Counted from the stretch's first letter, positions 6,472 to 12,062 are shown. The stretch: DNA of 64,000 bases from Verrucomicrobiaceae bacterium (GCA_015075365.1 JABTUN010000003.1:601060-665059), one strand, 5' to 3'. The notes: generated by a model from the letters alone, not told the origin. Made by a program: numbers and translations.

Positions 6472-6667
6472 TCCGCCGCGACGCCGGAACCATCCGCCGC
6501 GACGCCGGAACTGTCCGCCGCGACGCCGGAACCATCCGCCGCGACGCCGGAACTGTCCGGCGCGACACCGGAACCATCCGGCGCGACGCTGGAACTGTCC
6601 GCCGCGACGCCGGAACTGTCCGCCGCGACGCCGGAACTGTCCGCCGCGACGCTGGAACCGTCCGGCG
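6472..6667. repeat. 21-bp tandem array A, 9 full units plus a partial unit, consensus TCCGCCGCGACGCCGGAAC(CA/TG)
   Basis: Units read directly at 6472, 6493, 6514, 6535, 6556, 6577, 6598, 6619 and 6640. Confidence 0.95.
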
Positions 6668-6835
6668 TGAAAAAGGAAACGCCGTTTCCACCGCCGCACC
6701 GGGGCGCATCCAGCGCGTCGTCCGGCGGCGTGCCGCGGCATGGGCACAGGCGGGGCAGGGGCGGAGGAGGCTGGTGGGGGCCGCATTCCAGCGGGCGGAT
6801 GATCCCACCGCCTGCGCCGCCGTCATGGCCTCACG

Positions 6836-6880
6836 GGCTGCTGAAAGACACCGCAAGGCCTGCGGACCGGGTCAATGCCC
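6836..6880. repeat. Partial second copy of the MITE left end
   Basis: GGCTGCTGAAAGACACCGCAAGGCCTGCGGACCGGGTCA closely matches GCCTGCTGAAAAACACCGCAAGACCTGCGGACCGGGTCA at about 7069-7108. Confidence 0.8.
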
Positions 6881-6949
6881 GGATCTACAGGCCGGATCAG
6901 TGCCCCGGTCCATACCCGGCGTCGTCACCTTTGGTGAAAGGCGGTTTCA

Positions 6950-7033
6950 AAACCACGAAGGGTCACGAATGAGCACGAATCGTTTACCCAGAAGGAGAAT
7001 CCATGGGTGAAAATTCGTGACTCCTCGTGGTTT
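6950..7033. repeat. Inverted-repeat hairpin with 21-bp arms and 2 mismatches (REP-like)
   Basis: AAACCACGAAGGGTCACGAAT (6950-6970) pairs with ATTCGTGACTCCTCGTGGTTT (7013-7033). Confidence 0.8.
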
Positions 7034-7059
7034 AACCATCACAAGTCATGATGACGCGC

Positions 7060-7193
7060 GGCCTGGCAGCCTGCTGAAAAACACCGCAAGACCTGCGGAC
7101 CGGGTCACTGCTCCGATCGACAGCGCAGGTGCAAGCGTTGCTGTAGCACCGGCCAGTGGCCGGTGAGGGCGTTTTTCAGCAGCCTGCCAGGCC
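7060..7193. mobile_element. MITE-like non-autonomous element with IS-type terminal inverted repeats
   Basis: Left end GGCCTGGCAGCCTGCTGAAAAAC and right end GTTTTTCAGCAGCCTGCCAGGCC form about 23-bp TIRs with 1 mismatch. No internal ORF of note. Confidence 0.7.
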
Positions 7194-7385
7194 GTAATGA
7201 TGCAGTTGGAGTGAACGAAAGGCGCGGCAGCGTCGTGGAGCGCGCGTGGCAGGCGTCAGCGCGACACCGCCGTCGCCGGCCGGACAGCGCGCATGGGCCG
7301 GAGAATGTGGTTGCGGTGCCCAACAGCGGTGTCGCCGGGGCAAAAGACGTGAGTTTGTGCCGGTGAAACTCGTCGCCCCCCGATC

Positions 7386-7553
7386 CTGCGGGACCGCAAA
7401 CTCGATCTGCGGGACCGCAAACTCAATCTGCGGGACCGCAAACTCAATCTGCGGGACCGCAAACTCGATCTGCGGGACCGCAAACTCAATCTGCGGGACC
7501 GCAAACTCGATCTGCGGGACCACGAACTCGATCTGCGGGACCGCAGCCTCAAT
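7386..7553. repeat. 21-bp tandem array B, 8 units, consensus CTGCGGGACCGCAAACTC(G/A)AT
   Basis: Read directly. Translates as (VPQIEFA)n on the minus strand and (GTANSIC)n on the plus strand. Confidence 0.95.
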
Positions 7554-7816
7554 TTGGAGGACGGTCCATTCTGCCCGCGGCTCCCGGTTTGGGGCTGGCG
7601 GCTGCGCGGTTGCCGGGGAGGTGGCAGGAACCATCCGTCGTGAAAAAGCACCAGGAACGACATACCAGGAGCCTCACAACCCGTCCAGCGGGTTGCGCGT
7701 CCCGGTGCCGCCACCTGACCTTCATCGTCTGCGAGGACTTCTCCAACCATTGCTCAACGGCTCCTCCTGGCCCTGGCAAGTCTCCCTGAACGCTGCGCTC
7801 CGAGGACGACTCGGTC

Positions 7817-7919
7817 CCGCTCTCCGCTCTCCGCCCTTTGCCCTTTGCCCTTCGCCCTCCGCCCTCCGCCCTCCGCCCTCCGCCCTCCGCCCTCCGCCCT
7901 CCGCCCTCCGCCCTCCGCC
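7817..7919. repeat. Heptanucleotide array, 14 units, including 8 consecutive perfect CCGCCCT (7859-7914)
   Basis: Read directly. Confidence 0.95.
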
Positions 7920-8141
7920 GCAGCCCCAATAGCGCCCGTAACCCTCCATCGCCGACCTCAGCGCGGTTTCGGCTGGCAGGGTTTTGCAAAATTTCAAAAA
8001 ACGCGCCATCTCCACGACCCACCAGCCCAGCCGCCGCTCCCCGTCCGCGTTGGTGGGCATCAAAACGCCCGCTGCTTTGACGACCCGCCGCACCCAAGGC
8101 TTGACCTCGGGCGACTTTTTTGCTTCCATCGGCGCATTCAT
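7920..8141 (-). pseudogene. Truncated ORF in the integron-integrase position (probable intI 5-prime remnant)
   Basis: RBS GAAAGGA before ATG 8141, encoding MNAPMEAKKSPEVKPW..RRLGWWVVEMARFLKFCK..YGRY. It is divergent from the attI-like site and runs into the heptamer array. No tyrosine-recombinase catalytic motifs are visible, so the call is positional. Confidence 0.45.
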
Positions 8142-8203
8142 CAAAATCCTTTCTTTCTGTGAACGGCCCTTTTTACGGCACCTCAACCCTGTTAATCCAC
8201 AGA

Positions 8204-8236
8204 AAATTGTGGGCGAATCTGATTCGCCCACAATTT
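8204..8236. promoter_or_regulatory. Perfect palindrome, 16-bp arms with 1-bp spacer, adjacent to attI
   Basis: AAATTGTGGGCGAATC-T-GATTCGCCCACAATTT, read directly. Function unknown. Confidence 0.6.
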
Positions 8237-8239
8237 ATT

Positions 8240-8259
8240 GTGACTAAACAACGTTAGGC
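8240..8259 (+). other. attI: attI-like integron recombination site (core GTTAGGC at 8253-8259)
   Basis: ACTAAACAAC|GTTAGGC resembles the attI1 junction CTAAAACAAA|GTTAGGC. The core is the exact complement of GCCTAAC at the end of cassette 1. Confidence 0.75.
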
Positions 8260-8271
8260 CAAGGAAAAATT

Positions 8272-9147
8272 GTGACGCCAGATGCCATTCGTAGTCTCTG
8301 CAGAGACAGGATCGAGAGCCTTGAACATTGGTTGAGGCGATTGATCGACGATGCACTTTCGGAGACTTACGGCGATTACTTTTCTTACACCGATAGTTCC
8401 GGGAACCGACTACTGAAGAAGTCCCTCGTTGAGAGTGTTGCGTCTCGGAGGGCGACTGAGCCAGGTAGATACCCCCGTCCAGTCGACGCAGTTTTACTCG
8501 AAGACGCGATTTATATCGTGTGTCACCCGAGCCTCTATCACGCGCATTTTCGACTTCCCCTCCAGCTTGCGTTTCCCGACGGGGTCGAAGAAGCCAGAAC
8601 ATTCCTCGGCCGTCTTCTGGCATCACGCAATCACCTTGCCCATGCGAACCCGATCAGCGCCAGACAGGCCGAGCAGGTCTTGTGTTACACTGGTGATGTC
8701 ATAGACTCGCTGAAGGAATATTATACAACATTGGGAATGAACAGAGCATTCAACGTTCCAACAATTCTGAAGGTAACCGACTCGTTTGGGAACGAGTTTA
8801 CACGAAGTCAGATGTCACCAGTCCACGACGGTGGCATTTCGATGAACTTTTCTGATCGCCCAGATATGGCGCTGCGACCGGGAGACACCCTCGTGCTTGA
8901 GATTGACGTTGATCCGGCTTTCGACCCTGAGACTTACACTATCCGATGGGCATCCACTAAAGAATGGGACGGAGGGGATCGAGCATCGCCTGTGGTTACC
9001 ATCCCTGTCAGGAGCCGTCAGGTTGGCCAATTGTGGGATGTTCAGTGCCGAATCACCTCCAAGAAGGATTGGCACCGAATGCACATGGGATGTGACGATT
9101 TCCTGATGTTCCACTATGTCGTCTTACCACCAATCAACGCGGCCTAA
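8272..9147 (+). CDS. Integron cassette 1: Swt1-like HEPN-domain protein with C-terminal beta-rich domain
   Basis: IESLEHWLRRLI N-terminal helix and SRNHLAH (RxxxxH) motif. The TAA stop lies inside the attC R'' box (GCCTAAC). More AT-rich than the backbone. Confidence 0.75.
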   Translation: MTPDAIRSLCRDRIESLEHWLRRLIDDALSETYGDYFSYTDSSGNRLLKKSLVESVASRRATEPGRYPRPVDAVLLEDAIYIVCHPSLYHAHFRLPLQLAFPDGVEEARTFLGRLLASRNHLAHANPISARQAEQVLCYTGDVIDSLKEYYTTLGMNRAFNVPTILKVTDSFGNEFTRSQMSPVHDGGISMNFSDRPDMALRPGDTLVLEIDVDPAFDPETYTIRWASTKEWDGGDRASPVVTIPVRSRQVGQLWDVQCRITSKKDWHRMHMGCDDFLMFHYVVLPPINAA

Positions 9148-9234
9148 CAAAACGGATGCAGGCAACGGATCGAAGGCTATCTGTCGTGTCAGCAACGTCC
9201 TGCGCTCGCCGTCGCCTGATCCGAGTCGTTCGCC
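9142..9234 (+). other. attC: attC site 1 (93 bp)
   Basis: R'' GCCTAAC and R' GTTCGCC. L'' CGGATGCAGGCAACGG pairs with L' CCGTCGCCTGATCCG, leaving an extrahelical base. Confidence 0.9.
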
Positions 9235-9265
9235 CAAGAACACCGCCACCCTACCTGCTAAAAAT

Positions 9266-9544
9266 ATGAATCTCACTGATCCCAGATTGATGGAGCCGAC
9301 CACTATTGCAGACCTTGAGCGGAAGATTGCCGAGGAGGTGCGAGCTACAGGGGAAGATCCGGAGGTTATCGATGTGTTACTCGGTTACAGTGAAGATCCC
9401 GAGACCCTCGTTAAGTCATTCGTTAACGCAGTGGTTACTGTGAACGGCGTTGAACGGGTCGTTAGGGTCCTTCCGAAACCCTCACCAGACGACAAGTCGC
9501 TTCAGCTTAGCCGAAGCATCAGAAGGAATCAGTATAAGGCATGA
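9266..9544 (+). CDS. Integron cassette 2 ORF A, small acidic hypothetical protein
   Basis: 92 aa (MNLTDPRLMEPTTIADL...). Start trimmed from 9116 because the upstream part overlaps attC1. Confidence 0.55.
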   Translation: MNLTDPRLMEPTTIADLERKIAEEVRATGEDPEVIDVLLGYSEDPETLVKSFVNAVVTVNGVERVVRVLPKPSPDDKSLQLSRSIRRNQYKA

Positions 9545-9581
9545 GTTTTGGAATGGTTTCGACGCCAGTAACTTCGCAAAT

Positions 9582-9827
9582 ATGGCCACCACACAACGAT
9601 TCACAAAGTTCATCTACCTCAGGGATCACGGCTCAGTCCTTGCATCGACACGGCAACCAGTTGAGTATTGGATACACCCGGATGAGATCGCATCTTTTCA
9701 GATTGCCTGTCCTAGGACGCCAGTAGTTACAGTGCGGCTTCGCAGCCGTCCTGATGATAGAGGGATTGAGGTTCGGGGCACAGAAGCCACAACCCTTCTG
9801 AACGAGCTCCGCGGTCCGAAACGTTGA
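9582..9827 (+). CDS. Integron cassette 2 ORF B, small hypothetical protein
   Basis: 81 aa (MATTQRFTKFIYLRDHG...), lying between ORF A and attC2. Confidence 0.5.
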   Translation: MATTQRFTKFIYLRDHGSVLASTRQPVEYWIHPDEIASFQIACPRTPVVTVRLRSRPDDRGIEVRGTEATTLLNELRGPKR

Positions 9828-9859
9828 AAATGAATCGTTCATCCACATCACAAGCCAAG

Positions 9860-9952
9860 GGCGAACAAGACGGATGCAGGCAACGGCTCGAAGGCTATCT
9901 GTCGTGTCAGCAACGTCTTGCGCTCGCCGTCGCCTGATCCGAAGCGTTCGGC
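9860..9952 (+). other. attC: attC site 2 (93 bp)
   Basis: R'' GGCGAAC is the complement of GTTCGCC at 9228. R' is GTTCGGC. The interior is nearly identical to attC1. Confidence 0.9.
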
Positions 9953-9965
9953 CGCTCCACACGCC

Positions 9966-10205
9966 ATGCCGAAACGAAAGCTCAAAGTCGGAGACAAGAT
10001 TCGGGTCACGGGATACAGGCCCGGAAAGTATCCGCCCGGCATTGTAGATGACATGGGCACGGAGAAGTTGTTCAGGAGTTTGGTCGGACGCCGCTACACA
10101 GTCAGAGGCTTTGATGGTTGCGGACACATTGAGCTACAGCCGAAGCGACTTCACACGGTTTGGATTGAGTCAGACCTCGTGGAGTTGGCTGGGAGGTCAC
10201 GATGA
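9966..10205 (+). CDS. Integron cassette 3: small basic SH3/KOW-like hypothetical protein
   Basis: 79 aa (MPKRKLKVGDKIRVTGY...), starting 14 bp after the attC2 R' box. Confidence 0.6.
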   Translation: MPKRKLKVGDKIRVTGYRPGKYPPGIVDDMGTEKLFRSLVGRRYTVRGFDGCGHIELQPKRLHTVWIESDLVELAGRSR

Positions 10206-10371
10206 CGCGGCCTATGCGCTGCAGCTCTCCGGTCTGCCACTGCCACGATCCGCGAACGTGGACTTCCCTCCGCTGGATGATGGGGGCGCTGATGCGGTGG
10301 CTGGTTCATGCTCTTGAGGCACCACGGCGCTCCGTCTCACTTCTCACTTCTCACATCTTACGGATCACCCC

Positions 10372-10842
10372 TCAGCTTTGCAGCCCCTGGGTGTCGGCGA
10401 GCTTGGCACCGGTGAGGATGATGCCGGCCTGGGTGCTGCGTTTCAAGTTGGCGGCGATGAGGTCGGCGTCGGTGAAGTCGGTGTTGGTGAGGTTGCAGCC
10501 TTCGAGGTTGGCACCGGAGAGATCCGCGCCGCGGAGGCAGGCGTTGCTGAGGTTGGCGTTGCGCATGGAGACGCCGCCGAGATCGGCGCCGCTGAGGTTG
10601 GCGCCGTCGAGGTTGACGCTGTCGAGATTGGCGCCGCTGAAGTCAGCGCCGGACAGATTCGTGCCGGCGAGGTTGGCCTTGGTGAGGGTGGTGCCCACGA
10701 AGTGCGCCTTCGCCAGATTCAGGTCGTTGAGGATGGCCCCGGCGAGGTTCATGCCGGTTTCGTCGATCTTGCGGCCGCTTTTGCCGCCGCTGTCGAGCCA
10801 TTGGGTGTGCGCGAGGAGTTCTTCGTTCGTGATGCTTGCCAT
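10372..10842 (-). CDS. Pentapeptide repeat protein
   Basis: Runs of A(N/D)LxG/x pentapeptides (ANLAG TNLSG ADFSG ANLDS...). Start trimmed to MASITNEEL. Confidence 0.9.
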   Translation of the reverse strand: MASITNEELLAHTQWLDSGGKSGRKIDETGMNLAGAILNDLNLAKAHFVGTTLTKANLAGTNLSGADFSGANLDSVNLDGANLSGADLGGVSMRNANLSNACLRGADLSGANLEGCNLTNTDFTDADLIAANLKRSTQAGIILTGAKLADTQGLQS

Positions 10843-10893
10843 GCGCGCCCAAGGTGAACGGGTGGAAAGCGCGCGCAAATGCCAGTTTGGGTG

Positions 10894-11946
10894 TCATGCA
10901 CCCGGTTTCCACCGGGGGAAGCCGCAGATGTGGACATTGTCGCCAATGGGCAGCACGCGCGCGTGCTCCAGCTCCACGGAGGCGGGCAGGGGATCTCCGG
11001 CGAGGGAGGGACGCCCGCCGCCGCACAGGAGCGGCGCGATGTACCAGTGCGCCTCGTCCACGAGCTGCTCGCGAAAGGCCTGGCCGAGGATGATGCCGCC
11101 GCCTTCAATGAGGACGGTGACGACACCGCGCTCGCCGAGCTGTTTCAAGACATCGCGCAAATCCAGGCCCTGCATGAGCAGGGTGCGGTCCTTGTGCGTG
11201 TCCGTGAGCAGATGGCACTCCGGCGGAAGATTGCCGCTGCGTGTGAGCACGACACGCCAGGGCTGCTCTTTGCCGGTGGCGGCGCAGCCATCCCGCAGGG
11301 TGAGCTGCGGATTGTCCTTCCGCACGGTCTCCGCGCCGATAAGGATGGCGTCCGCCCGCATGCGCAGCCGGCGTCCATGCATGCGCGCGGCGTCGCTGGT
11401 GAGCCACTGTCCCTCCCCGGCGGGGCGGGTGATGCGGCCGTCGAGGCTCTGGCCCGCCTTCACGATCACATAGGGCAGGCCGGTGGTGACCCATTTGGCA
11501 AAGGGGCGGATGAGCCGCGTGCAATCCTCCAGCAGCACGCCGGAGGTGACCGCGATGCCCGCGCGGCCGAGGATCTCCCGCGCGCGCTGGTGGTGCTTGG
11601 GATTGGGGTCATCCGCACCGAAGACGACGCGCTTCAGGCCTGCGGCCTGGATGGCATCCGTGCAGGGCGGGGTGCGGCCATGTGTGCAGCACGGCTCCAA
11701 GGTGACGTAGATGGTGGCTCCGGGCAGCAGCTTGGGGAAGGCGGTCCTGGCATCCTGGATGGCCACAACTTCGGCATGGGGACCACCAGCCTTGGCATGG
11801 TAGCCCTGGCCGATCACGCGGTCCTGCGCCACGATGACCGCGCCCACCGGCGGATTGGGGCTGGTCAGGCCGATGCCGCGTTTCGCTTGATCGAGCGCCA
11901 GGTGCATCCAGCGGGCGTCGGAGTCGGTTTTGTCATGAATGGCCAT
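10894..11946 (-). CDS. ribD: Bifunctional riboflavin biosynthesis deaminase/reductase
   Basis: PNPPVGAVIV, HAEVVAI, TLEPCCTHGRTPPC, and a reductase part KAGQSLDGRI..IEGGG. Confidence 0.96.
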   Translation of the reverse strand: MAIHDKTDSDARWMHLALDQAKRGIGLTSPNPPVGAVIVAQDRVIGQGYHAKAGGPHAEVVAIQDARTAFPKLLPGATIYVTLEPCCTHGRTPPCTDAIQAAGLKRVVFGADDPNPKHHQRAREILGRAGIAVTSGVLLEDCTRLIRPFAKWVTTGLPYVIVKAGQSLDGRITRPAGEGQWLTSDAARMHGRRLRMRADAILIGAETVRKDNPQLTLRDGCAATGKEQPWRVVLTRSGNLPPECHLLTDTHKDRTLLMQGLDLRDVLKQLGERGVVTVLIEGGGIILGQAFREQLVDEAHWYIAPLLCGGGRPSLAGDPLPASVELEHARVLPIGDNVHICGFPRWKPGA

Positions 11947-12062
11947 CGAAAGGCCTGCTTTTTACTCATTTGGAAAGGGTTTCGCCAATGAGATGATTGT
12001 CTAATTGTCGTCAAAACTTGCCGGGGTGTCCGCCTGCGGCGAGAATTTCCCACCACCGGGCG

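Follow-up and report, generated by a model that had tools for sequence, protein, structure and literature searches.

A locus of a Verrucomicrobiaceae bacterium that is very probably a decayed chromosomal integron

The DNA considered here is a stretch of 64,000 nucleotides, hereafter the window, from a Verrucomicrobiaceae bacterium (GCA_015075365.1, JABTUN010000003.1:601060–665059; positions are counted from its first letter). Between position 7674 and about position 10247 it holds what is very probably a decayed chromosomal integron, in which the integrase gene (intI) has been destroyed and the gene cassettes have been left fossilised behind the integration site attI. Read from the sequence, the locus has the anatomy of an integron, homology to intact elements and a crossover position that can be fixed to the base, and its integrase has been lost.

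Two attC sites lie 626 nt apart and about 380 kb separate them from the closest intact intI, as in clusters of attC sites that have no integron-integrase (CALINs). An intI with the integron-specific domain within about 4 kb of attC sites, by which complete integrons are defined (Cury et al. 2016), is absent from the window and present in the orthologous element of a relative, genome G044. The locus is therefore a CALIN with an intI remnant, that is, a decayed chromosomal integron, and such decay is a documented fate. An initial reading of the bare DNA, here called the sequence-only reading, had described the array as CALIN-like, and this stands: it has two attC sites and co-oriented cassettes, and no functional integrase lies beside it. 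Its guess of Verrucomicrobiota as the origin is likewise correct.

Remains of the integrase gene and its intact relatives

Comparisons were made with 145 genomes of the family (15 genera), the bacterium's own included. In G044 (JAEUHK01, same genus) an intact, divergent integron integrase gene of 457 codons is found together with the attI and the attC family of the window. All three parts of this integron type are thus present there, and the locus in the window is a degraded version of it. Divergent open reading frames (ORFs) of 457–480 aa stand beside the attI palindrome in G044, G018 and G094, and in all three attI lies 66 bp upstream of the intact integrase gene. The attC sites behind attI in G044 are 82–97% identical to the window's 93-nt family, which also follows attI copies in G008, G009, G018, G050 and G074. 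The G044 protein scores 399 bits on TIGR02249 (cut-off 265 bits) over residues 145–457 and matches PF13495 and PF00589 at residues 144–442; its preceding 144 residues have no Pfam match. We refer to this long-form Verrucomicrobial integrase as type B.

The window's intI, a type-B pseudogene at 7674–8141 on the minus strand, was located by tblastn of the G044 integrase (457 aa) against positions 7300–8300, and its canonical SAM-like and catalytic part is missing. Its first piece (7929–8141, with the ATG at 8141–8139) encodes residues 1–71, the first part of an N-terminal extension domain of about 120 aa, and 65 of these 71 residues are identical to those of G044 (92%, E = 7e-45). The sequence-only reading had taken the divergent ORF starting at 8141 for the 5′ stump of intI, and this match bears it out; the idea of a simple 5′ truncation holds for the N-terminal stump but not for the gene as a whole, since a middle piece, the last 14 codons and the stop codon are also kept. 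Where residues 72–141 or so would be, there stands other sequence, including a heptamer tandem repeat, (CCCTCCG)n at 7817–7921, in which tblastn with the G044 integrase found no similarity to those residues and which keeps a spurious 139-aa frame open. Residues 142–155 (EQWLEKSSQTMKVR; 7714–7755, minus strand) lie in a frame other than that of the N-terminal piece and are joined directly to the C-terminal piece, residues 444–457 (SGGGTGTRNPLDGL; 7674–7718, minus strand, including the stop codon TGA at 7676–7674). Each of these two short pieces is identical to G044 at 12 of 14 residues. Residues from about 156 to 443 (about 288 codons, or about 864 bp) are deleted and, with the junction read against the intact G044 DNA, the deletion lies between two short AGG(T/C)G..GGCG similarities. 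No catalytic residue is left in the surviving remnant, and with its integrase thus gutted the platform cannot move its own cassettes.

Pfam gave no integrase-family match for the 8141 ORF, because the stump belongs to an N-terminal extension for which Pfam has no family, and NCBIfam and PADLOC likewise gave nothing significant for the stump. The genome's own intact integrase showed no similarity to positions 7000–8400 by BLASTP or tblastn, because that integrase is of another type without the N-terminal extension (see below). A tblastn search with the G044 integrase found no intact cognate integrase and no other type-B intI sequence in the genome. The breakpoints lie at 71/72 and 155|444 in the window, at about residue 78 in the stump of G074, and at 161|439 in a deletion of G046 which, close as it is to the window's 155|444, is by its endpoints an independent event. 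These differing breakpoints mean that there is no shared inactivation event by which cassette turnover could be dated.

The attI site and the crossover point

The attI of this type-B integron occupies 8181–8255 on the plus strand. Its 75 bp form an imperfect palindrome, perfect in a 16-1-16 core at 8204–8236, and end in CTAAACAAC-GTT; the crossover is placed between G8253 and T8254. The palindrome is strong (8185–8255; fold z scores of −7.5 and −8.4). Its core, TGTGGRCGAATC-N-GATTCGCCCAC, occurs in 62 of the 145 genomes (7 of 15 genera, 1–12 copies each), and a reversed control pattern has no match in the same set. The attI-like site claimed from the sequence alone is thereby borne out, as is the claim that no intact intI lies at the locus, where we find intI remnants only.

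Conservation among 36 distinct copies of attI runs through ...GTGGCTAAACAAC and ends exactly at the G of GTT; what follows that G is variable (GTTCGCC, GTTAGGC, GTTCGGC, GTTAAGC, GTTATCT and others). At 14 loci the first attC behind attI belongs to the window's family, and in 12 of these the four bases past GTT complement the four bases before the AAC of that attC. When attI and attC partners were permuted, perfect matches averaged 3.4 and reached at most 10, and 12 were reached in 0 of 10,000 permutations. This complementarity is the footprint of attI × attC recombination at G|TT. Judged by these comparisons, the palindromic element at 8181–8255 is a genuine attI. Between it and the intI start lies a leader (8142–8180) that keeps the pattern CAT-AAAA-CCTTT...GTGAAC in relatives (36 left flanks aligned by eye) and in which the ribosome site and promoter of intI presumably reside.

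The 16-1-16 palindrome might instead serve primarily as an operator for the intI promoter, or as a binding site for the integrase's N-terminal domain, with the recombination core limited to the ...CTAAACAAC|GTT end; we think this unlikely, though not far-fetched. LexA boxes are present at the intI promoters of other integrons, and an operator would suit the perfect dyad symmetry, the high conservation and the distance of 63 bp from the divergent start codon, just as a binding site would suit the extra conserved domain of the long-form integrase. However, the same 17–21 bp and G|TT always come after the palindrome, that is, it travels with the recombination site. It also occurs without intI or leader, at C1:1068283 in the same genome and in G041, where there is no intI for an operator to control. 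Moreover, distant long-form integrases (48–50% identity) have no comparable palindrome upstream, and when the upstream DNA of 80 intI genes, long-form and short-form, was surveyed for palindromes, no consistent pattern emerged past close relatives. 

Three more copies of the type-B attI, none with an intI remnant, lie in the same genome at C1:1715613–1714460 (minus strand), C1:1068283–1068860 (plus strand) and C2:1156871 (minus strand), and each ends ...AAACAAC and then continues with GTT and differing cassette-like DNA. The array at C1:1715 kb has two cassettes with two attC types, followed by a GNAT-like acetyltransferase ORF. G041, of the same genus, has about 12 copies of the palindrome, several of them 1–2 kb apart in arrays (G041:C7:348–369 kb and G041:C1:178–180 kb; L062–L064), and two of its copies have about 70 nt of non-intI left flank in common; no integron integrase was found in this genome at E ≤ 1e-30. 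In G041 the attI-like site thus acts as a repeated array element as well. We considered whether the palindrome is a second type of attC and rejected this as the principal interpretation, as most copies lead into an intI leader and start codon; the AAC of the left arm, which is not conserved, also disfavours it, although the palindrome is attC-like in its symmetry.

The attC sites

Two 95-nt direct repeats at 9141–9235 and 9859–9953, 92% identical and both on the plus strand, hold the 93-nt attC sites. In attC 1 the R″ box is GCCTAAC (9142–9148), the extrahelical base is G9158 and the R′ box is GTTCGCC (9228–9234); in attC 2 these are GGCGAAC (9860–9866), G9876 and GTTCGGC (9946–9952). The inverse core triplets, AAC 9146–9148 with GTT 9228–9230 and AAC 9864–9866 with GTT 9946–9948, fall in alignment columns that are invariant or nearly so among 21 copies, and the recombining (bottom) strand of attC 1 is the minus strand. 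The fold consists of the AAC/GTT R box, an unpaired spacer of 3–4 nt, a 15-bp L stem and then a variable terminal structure of about 38 nt. The L stem is interrupted by the unpaired G on the R″–L″ arm (alignment column 18) and, 6 nt on, by an A.C mismatch or unpaired A. Bouvier et al. (PMC2727003) place the extrahelical bases of attC sites on the R″–L″ arm, where L″ has a conserved G and another base follows 6–8 nt downstream, and the arrangement in the window, with its second unpaired position 6 nt from the G, agrees with this.

Single sequences fold weakly better than their shuffles (z −1.6 to −1.9), so we rely on comparative evidence. Across the 21 attC copies, which come from nine genomes, 94.9% of cells are paired (97.4% in the L stem), and seven pairs have been altered on both sides. 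The covariation score is 0.096 versus 0.023 for shuffles, and 0 of 500 shuffles reach any of five measures; in slid-register controls 19–45% of cells are paired and the covariation score is 0.008–0.030. A genome-wide structural scan for attC gave about 1,650 matches, most of them false in this G+C-rich genome, and such a scan is informative only locally and when joined to the junction rule.

The rest of the genome, where the sequence-only reading had advised looking for an intact intI and further attC copies, has both: an intact integrase of another type on C3, and the same attC family in two further arrays (C4:337–338.6 kb and C1:1803–1804 kb), both head-less. The rule that cassette ends pair holds in both of these arrays too, for example in GTTCGGG/CCCGAAC of the one on C1. 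Eight other genomes of the family have the same repeat. By structure, covariation and distribution, then, the two repeats in the window are attC sites.

Cassettes and the end of the array

The four ORFs of the array are short and co-oriented. Cassette 1 (8254–9228, plus strand) contains an ORF of 291 aa (8272–9147) with its stop codon inside R″, and cassette 2 (9229–9946, plus strand) contains ORFs of 92 aa (9266–9544) and 81 aa (9582–9827). The first starts TTAGGCC, the complement of its own R″ GGCCTAA (match 4/4, extended 8/8), and the second starts TTCGCC, the complement of its own R″ GGCGAA (match 4/4). It had been noticed from the sequence that GTTAGGC (8253–8259) pairs with GCCTAAC (9142–9148) and GTTCGCC (9228–9234) with GGCGAAC (9860–9866), that each attC hairpin has an extrahelical base, and that cassette DNA is AT-richer than its surroundings. 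All of this holds, with the unpaired G at 9158 and 9876 and with 52–58% G+C in the cassettes versus 64–67% in the flanks. The count of three cassettes needs amendment: cassettes 1 and 2 are complete, but the third, here called the terminal segment (9947 to about 10247, plus strand), has an ORF of 79 aa (9966–10205) and no attC. Neither similarity nor the structural scan found a third attC there, and the expected R″, GCCGAAC, is absent. Backbone-type sequence begins at about 10248 and marks the right end of the array. The 76 nt at 10248–10323 are 91% identical to C3:1019667–1019589, an unrelated, non-integron intergenic stretch, and overlap a small minus-strand ORF (MNQPPHQRPHH...).

The cassette-1 protein has 321 homologs at 50–67% identity in several phyla (Pseudomonas, Azospirillum, Stenotrophomonas, Marinobacter, Moraxellaceae, Bacteroidia and others), all of them unnamed and none with a Pfam match. 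Its model (predicted local distance difference test score, pLDDT, 91.8) has an alpha-helical domain and a C-terminal immunoglobulin (Ig)-like beta sandwich. The alpha-helical domain contains an Rx4H motif, R119-N-H-L-A-H124, of which R119, N120 and H124 are invariant in 38 homologs. HEPN nucleases have an Rx4–6H motif in a four-helix fold, and the cassette-1 protein is a tentative member of them: its match to HEPN_Swt1 (E = 0.12) is below the cut-off, a fold search with the model gave Ig-like matches to the C-terminal domain only, and PADLOC gave no match. For the two ORFs of cassette 2 and that of the terminal segment there were no Pfam, NCBIfam or PADLOC matches and no paralogs in the genome, and no counterpart of the terminal-segment ORF turned up in the other 144 genomes compared. 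Cassette genes here are, as far as these searches reach, either strain-specific or spread across phyla.

Several observations weigh against reading the locus as a decayed integron. Each attC has one clean extrahelical base, the second being an A.C mismatch, and two or three are present in the attC sites that have been studied. The R boxes GGCGAAC/GTTCGCC (outer bases GCCT/GGCG) depart from RYYYAAC/GTTRRRY outside AAC/GTT. An Rfam scan of 6500–12000 returned chance microRNA and small-RNA matches only, Rfam 15 having no attC family, and a sigma-70 scan found no consensus match near attI and no cassette promoter. The cassette nature of the terminal segment, which lacks an attC, is presumed solely from its position after the R′ of attC 2. 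Finally, the ratio of nonsynonymous to synonymous substitution rates (dN/dS) of the intI stump versus relatives is low, 0.08–0.18, which also fits a recently inactivated gene or a fragment still under selection.

An intact integrase of another type

The intact integrase elsewhere in the genome, which we call type A, is encoded at C3:992989–993969. It is a protein of 337 aa that scores 360.6 bits on TIGR02249 and is 43% identical to type B; both the R-K-HxxR-H-Y residues and the W.WFW patch can be read from its sequence. Its attI differs from that of the window (...TTCAATG|TTA, from comparison of the intact gene copy with a broken copy at C3:1040170–1041175). The intact gene (C3:992989–995600; L028 6987–9700) is In0-like: no attC was recognised within 4 kb of it by a strict RYYYAAC...GTTRRRY scan or by the structural scan. 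It is bracketed by 132-nt direct repeats (L028 6839–6970 and 9491–9622; 90% identical) and blocks of a 42-bp tandem repeat. The second, frameshifted type-A intI (C3:1040170–1042600; L029) shares its attI with the intact copy and is followed by two cassettes whose ends pair according to the rule, GTTAGCGC...GCGCTAAC and GTTAGGCGG...CCGCCTAAC. Its attC sites are of a different family, 129 nt long, and the array is apparently cut by a transposase-like gene.

The accessible part of one study (PMC2095811) describes attC sites as recombined by several integrases and attI as needing its own integrase, from which excision in trans is conceivable and insertion at the window's attI unlikely. The window's array may thus not be frozen, the type-A integrase still excising or reshuffling its cassettes in trans, so that the loss would be confined to insertion at the orphan attI; as a variant of our explanation this does not contradict a decayed integron, and it seems to us possible but the less likely course. 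An intact 337-aa enzyme with readable catalytic residues is available for it, and the 93-nt attC family is present in the two head-less arrays as well. Against this, the array beside the broken type-A intI uses the different, 129-nt attC family, cassettes cannot be recognised next to the intact type-A gene, and the genome has no second copy of any cassette of the window.

Long-form integrases and their stumps

Long-form integrases such as the one lost from the decayed integron consist of a canonical IntI preceded by a conserved N-terminal domain of about 120 aa and a variable linker. The domain is modelled as helices (residues 15–97) plus a beta hairpin (pLDDT 83–95), and a profile comparison with the SAM-like domain gave a probability of 18%. 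At least 69 protein clusters of 440–480 aa, many named integron integrase and spread across Verrucomicrobiota, have the same N-terminus, and in the literature searched we found no description of an integron-integrase N-terminal extension of this kind. Among the 145 genomes the domain occurs 53 times, about 12–14 times in open frames of at least 430 aa and about 37 times as 5′ stumps of 27–106 residues, a ratio of stumps to intact genes of about 3:1 with up to five stumps per genome. No frame with this domain ends between about 130 and about 400 residues. The stump lengths are thus apparently not those expected from random truncation, which we offer as a lead and not as a conclusion.

That the ORF at 7722–8141 is a functional, free-standing N-terminal domain protein and not a dead stump is very improbable. 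Its dN/dS is 0.08 even versus the stump of G074, and 5′ stumps are indeed numerous in the family relative to intact genes. But 71 of about 120 domain residues remain, fused to a repeat-encoded tail, and otherwise conserved positions carry three replacements specific to the window's lineage, E22K, F27L and G42V, the last in the GWWG motif; in addition, the range of stump lengths is unlike that of a conserved product.

What persists at loci of this kind is a "head", consisting of attI and a short piece from the 5′ end of intI; there are also attI copies devoid of intI sequence, some of them repeated inside arrays. A tentative and rather doubtful generalisation would be that a separate lineage of integrons exists in Verrucomicrobiaceae and probably throughout Verrucomicrobiota, in which the integrase has an extra DNA-binding-like N-terminal domain (possibly a second SAM-like one), attI is hairpin-capable and attC-like, and heads persist and multiply after the integrase is lost. 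Heads may persist because they carry a cassette promoter, because the palindromic attI may act like an attC and move, or because they may be serviced in trans.

Repeats around the array

It is scarcely credible that the 95-nt repeats are ordinary intergenic elements, similar to repetitive extragenic palindromic (REP) sequences or miniature inverted-repeat transposable elements (MITEs), or terminators, with a coincidental likeness to integron parts: dispersed and tandem repeats do abound in the genome and single-sequence folds are marginally better than shuffles, but these repeats are confined to co-oriented arrays after short ORFs, obey the cassette-end rule, have compensatory changes and, in G044, lie directly behind attI beside a bona fide integron integrase.

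Repeats of other kinds are found around the decayed integron. The segment 7096–7632, which includes a 21-bp tandem repeat (CTGCGGGACCGCAAACTCRAT, 7365–7553), has 94–96% identity to the DNA that lies immediately downstream of the two type-A intI genes on the same contig (C3:1039125–1039976 and C3:992624–992791); this similarity stops 42 bp from the type-B stop codon, though the integrases themselves are 43% identical. The likeness points to ectopic recombination involving the flanks of integrons or to a flanking module that they share. Heptamer tandem repeats (CCCTCCG and TCACTTC/GTGAGAA types) lie at 7817–7921, at 10333–10362 and in many other places in the genome, whose intergenic DNA frequently has heptamer, 21-bp and 42-bp tandem repeats. 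Tandem repeats flank both sides of the intact intI and also occur upstream of the orphan attI at C1:1715613. A MITE- or REP-like element of about 125 bp at 7061–7195, with 27-nt terminal inverted repeats (7059–7085 and 7168–7194), has more than 30 copies at 85–94% identity on all large contigs.

Proposed history of the locus

The ancestral form would have been that of G044, with a divergent intI, a 75-bp attI and promoterless cassettes each ending in a 93-nt attC. By analogy with integrons that have been studied, from which we infer how recombination worked at this locus, the integrase would have recombined the folded bottom strand of an attC with attI at G|TT, and each entry would have left its signature in the bases past GTT, which complement the R″ at that cassette's other end. 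The same analogy suggests that the cassettes were expressed from a promoter near attI or intI. A deletion flanked by microhomology would then have taken about 288 codons of intI, and a heptamer repeat would have taken the place of residues 72–141 or so. Two complete cassettes and a terminal segment without attC would have been left fossilised behind attI.

Comparison with known integrons

Integrons are known in Verrucomicrobia and CALINs are common, with a recognisable intI pseudogene within 10 kb of 15 of 279 (PMC4889954). CALINs and chromosomal integrons with an inactivated intI (Cury et al. 2016, PMC4889954) likewise have a minimum of two attC sites as well as promoterless, co-oriented cassettes and lack a functional integrase. 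Where CALINs with an intI pseudogene are described (PMC4889954 and, for Xanthomonas, the accessible part of a preprint, bioRxiv 10.1101/2025.06.18.660453), the pseudogene lies beside the array and there are several arrays per genome, as here. Unlike in those CALINs, the attI of the window is identifiable and intact. The pseudogene screen of Cury et al. (2016) used IntI_Cterm and PF00589; the window's pseudogene keeps neither region, and that screen would therefore class the locus as a plain CALIN. A CALIN can thus be tied, by way of intact relatives, to a dead integrase of which no integrase domain survives and which standard pseudogene screens would miss.

The locus shares with the class 1 platform (intI1/attI1/Pc) the divergent arrangement of intI and attI, the G|TT crossover, the R″ and R′ boxes, the unpaired spacer and the extrahelical G. 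It differs from the classical platform in that its cognate integrase has the extra N-terminal domain of about 120 aa and a linker, in that its attI, 75 bp long, is palindromic and hairpin-capable, perfectly so over a 33-bp core, whereas the classical attI is a simple site with direct repeats, and in that its R boxes are GGCGAAC/GTTCGCC; the classical platform has the cassette promoter Pc, and none was identified at the window. To our knowledge attI sites are unknown for most chromosomal integrons, and we know of no experimental work on the type-B Verrucomicrobial platform. For this uncharacterised lineage attI and its crossover are here defined to the base, and its peculiarities, namely the extra integrase domain, the perfect 33-bp attI palindrome and the many orphan attI heads, are testable. 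Through cassette 1, the integron-borne genes of unknown function also gain a widespread, unnamed protein family, about 290 aa long, that has a HEPN-like motif.

Unusual cassettes of the delta-attI type, described in mobile integrons, carry attI-derived sites that lie away from intI, inside arrays, and are still recombined (PMC12901181). The type-B attI is likewise found without intI at three other loci of the same genome and is repeated in the G041 arrays. The delta-attI sites are truncated forms of attI1 and attI2 from clinical class 1 and class 2 integrons that have been assayed, whereas the type-B copies are full-length palindromes in environmental chromosomes, known from sequence only. Like the Vibrio cholerae superintegron with its homogeneous VCR (Vibrio cholerae repeat) attC sites, the lineage represented in the window has homogeneous attC sites, as is usual in sedentary chromosomal integrons.

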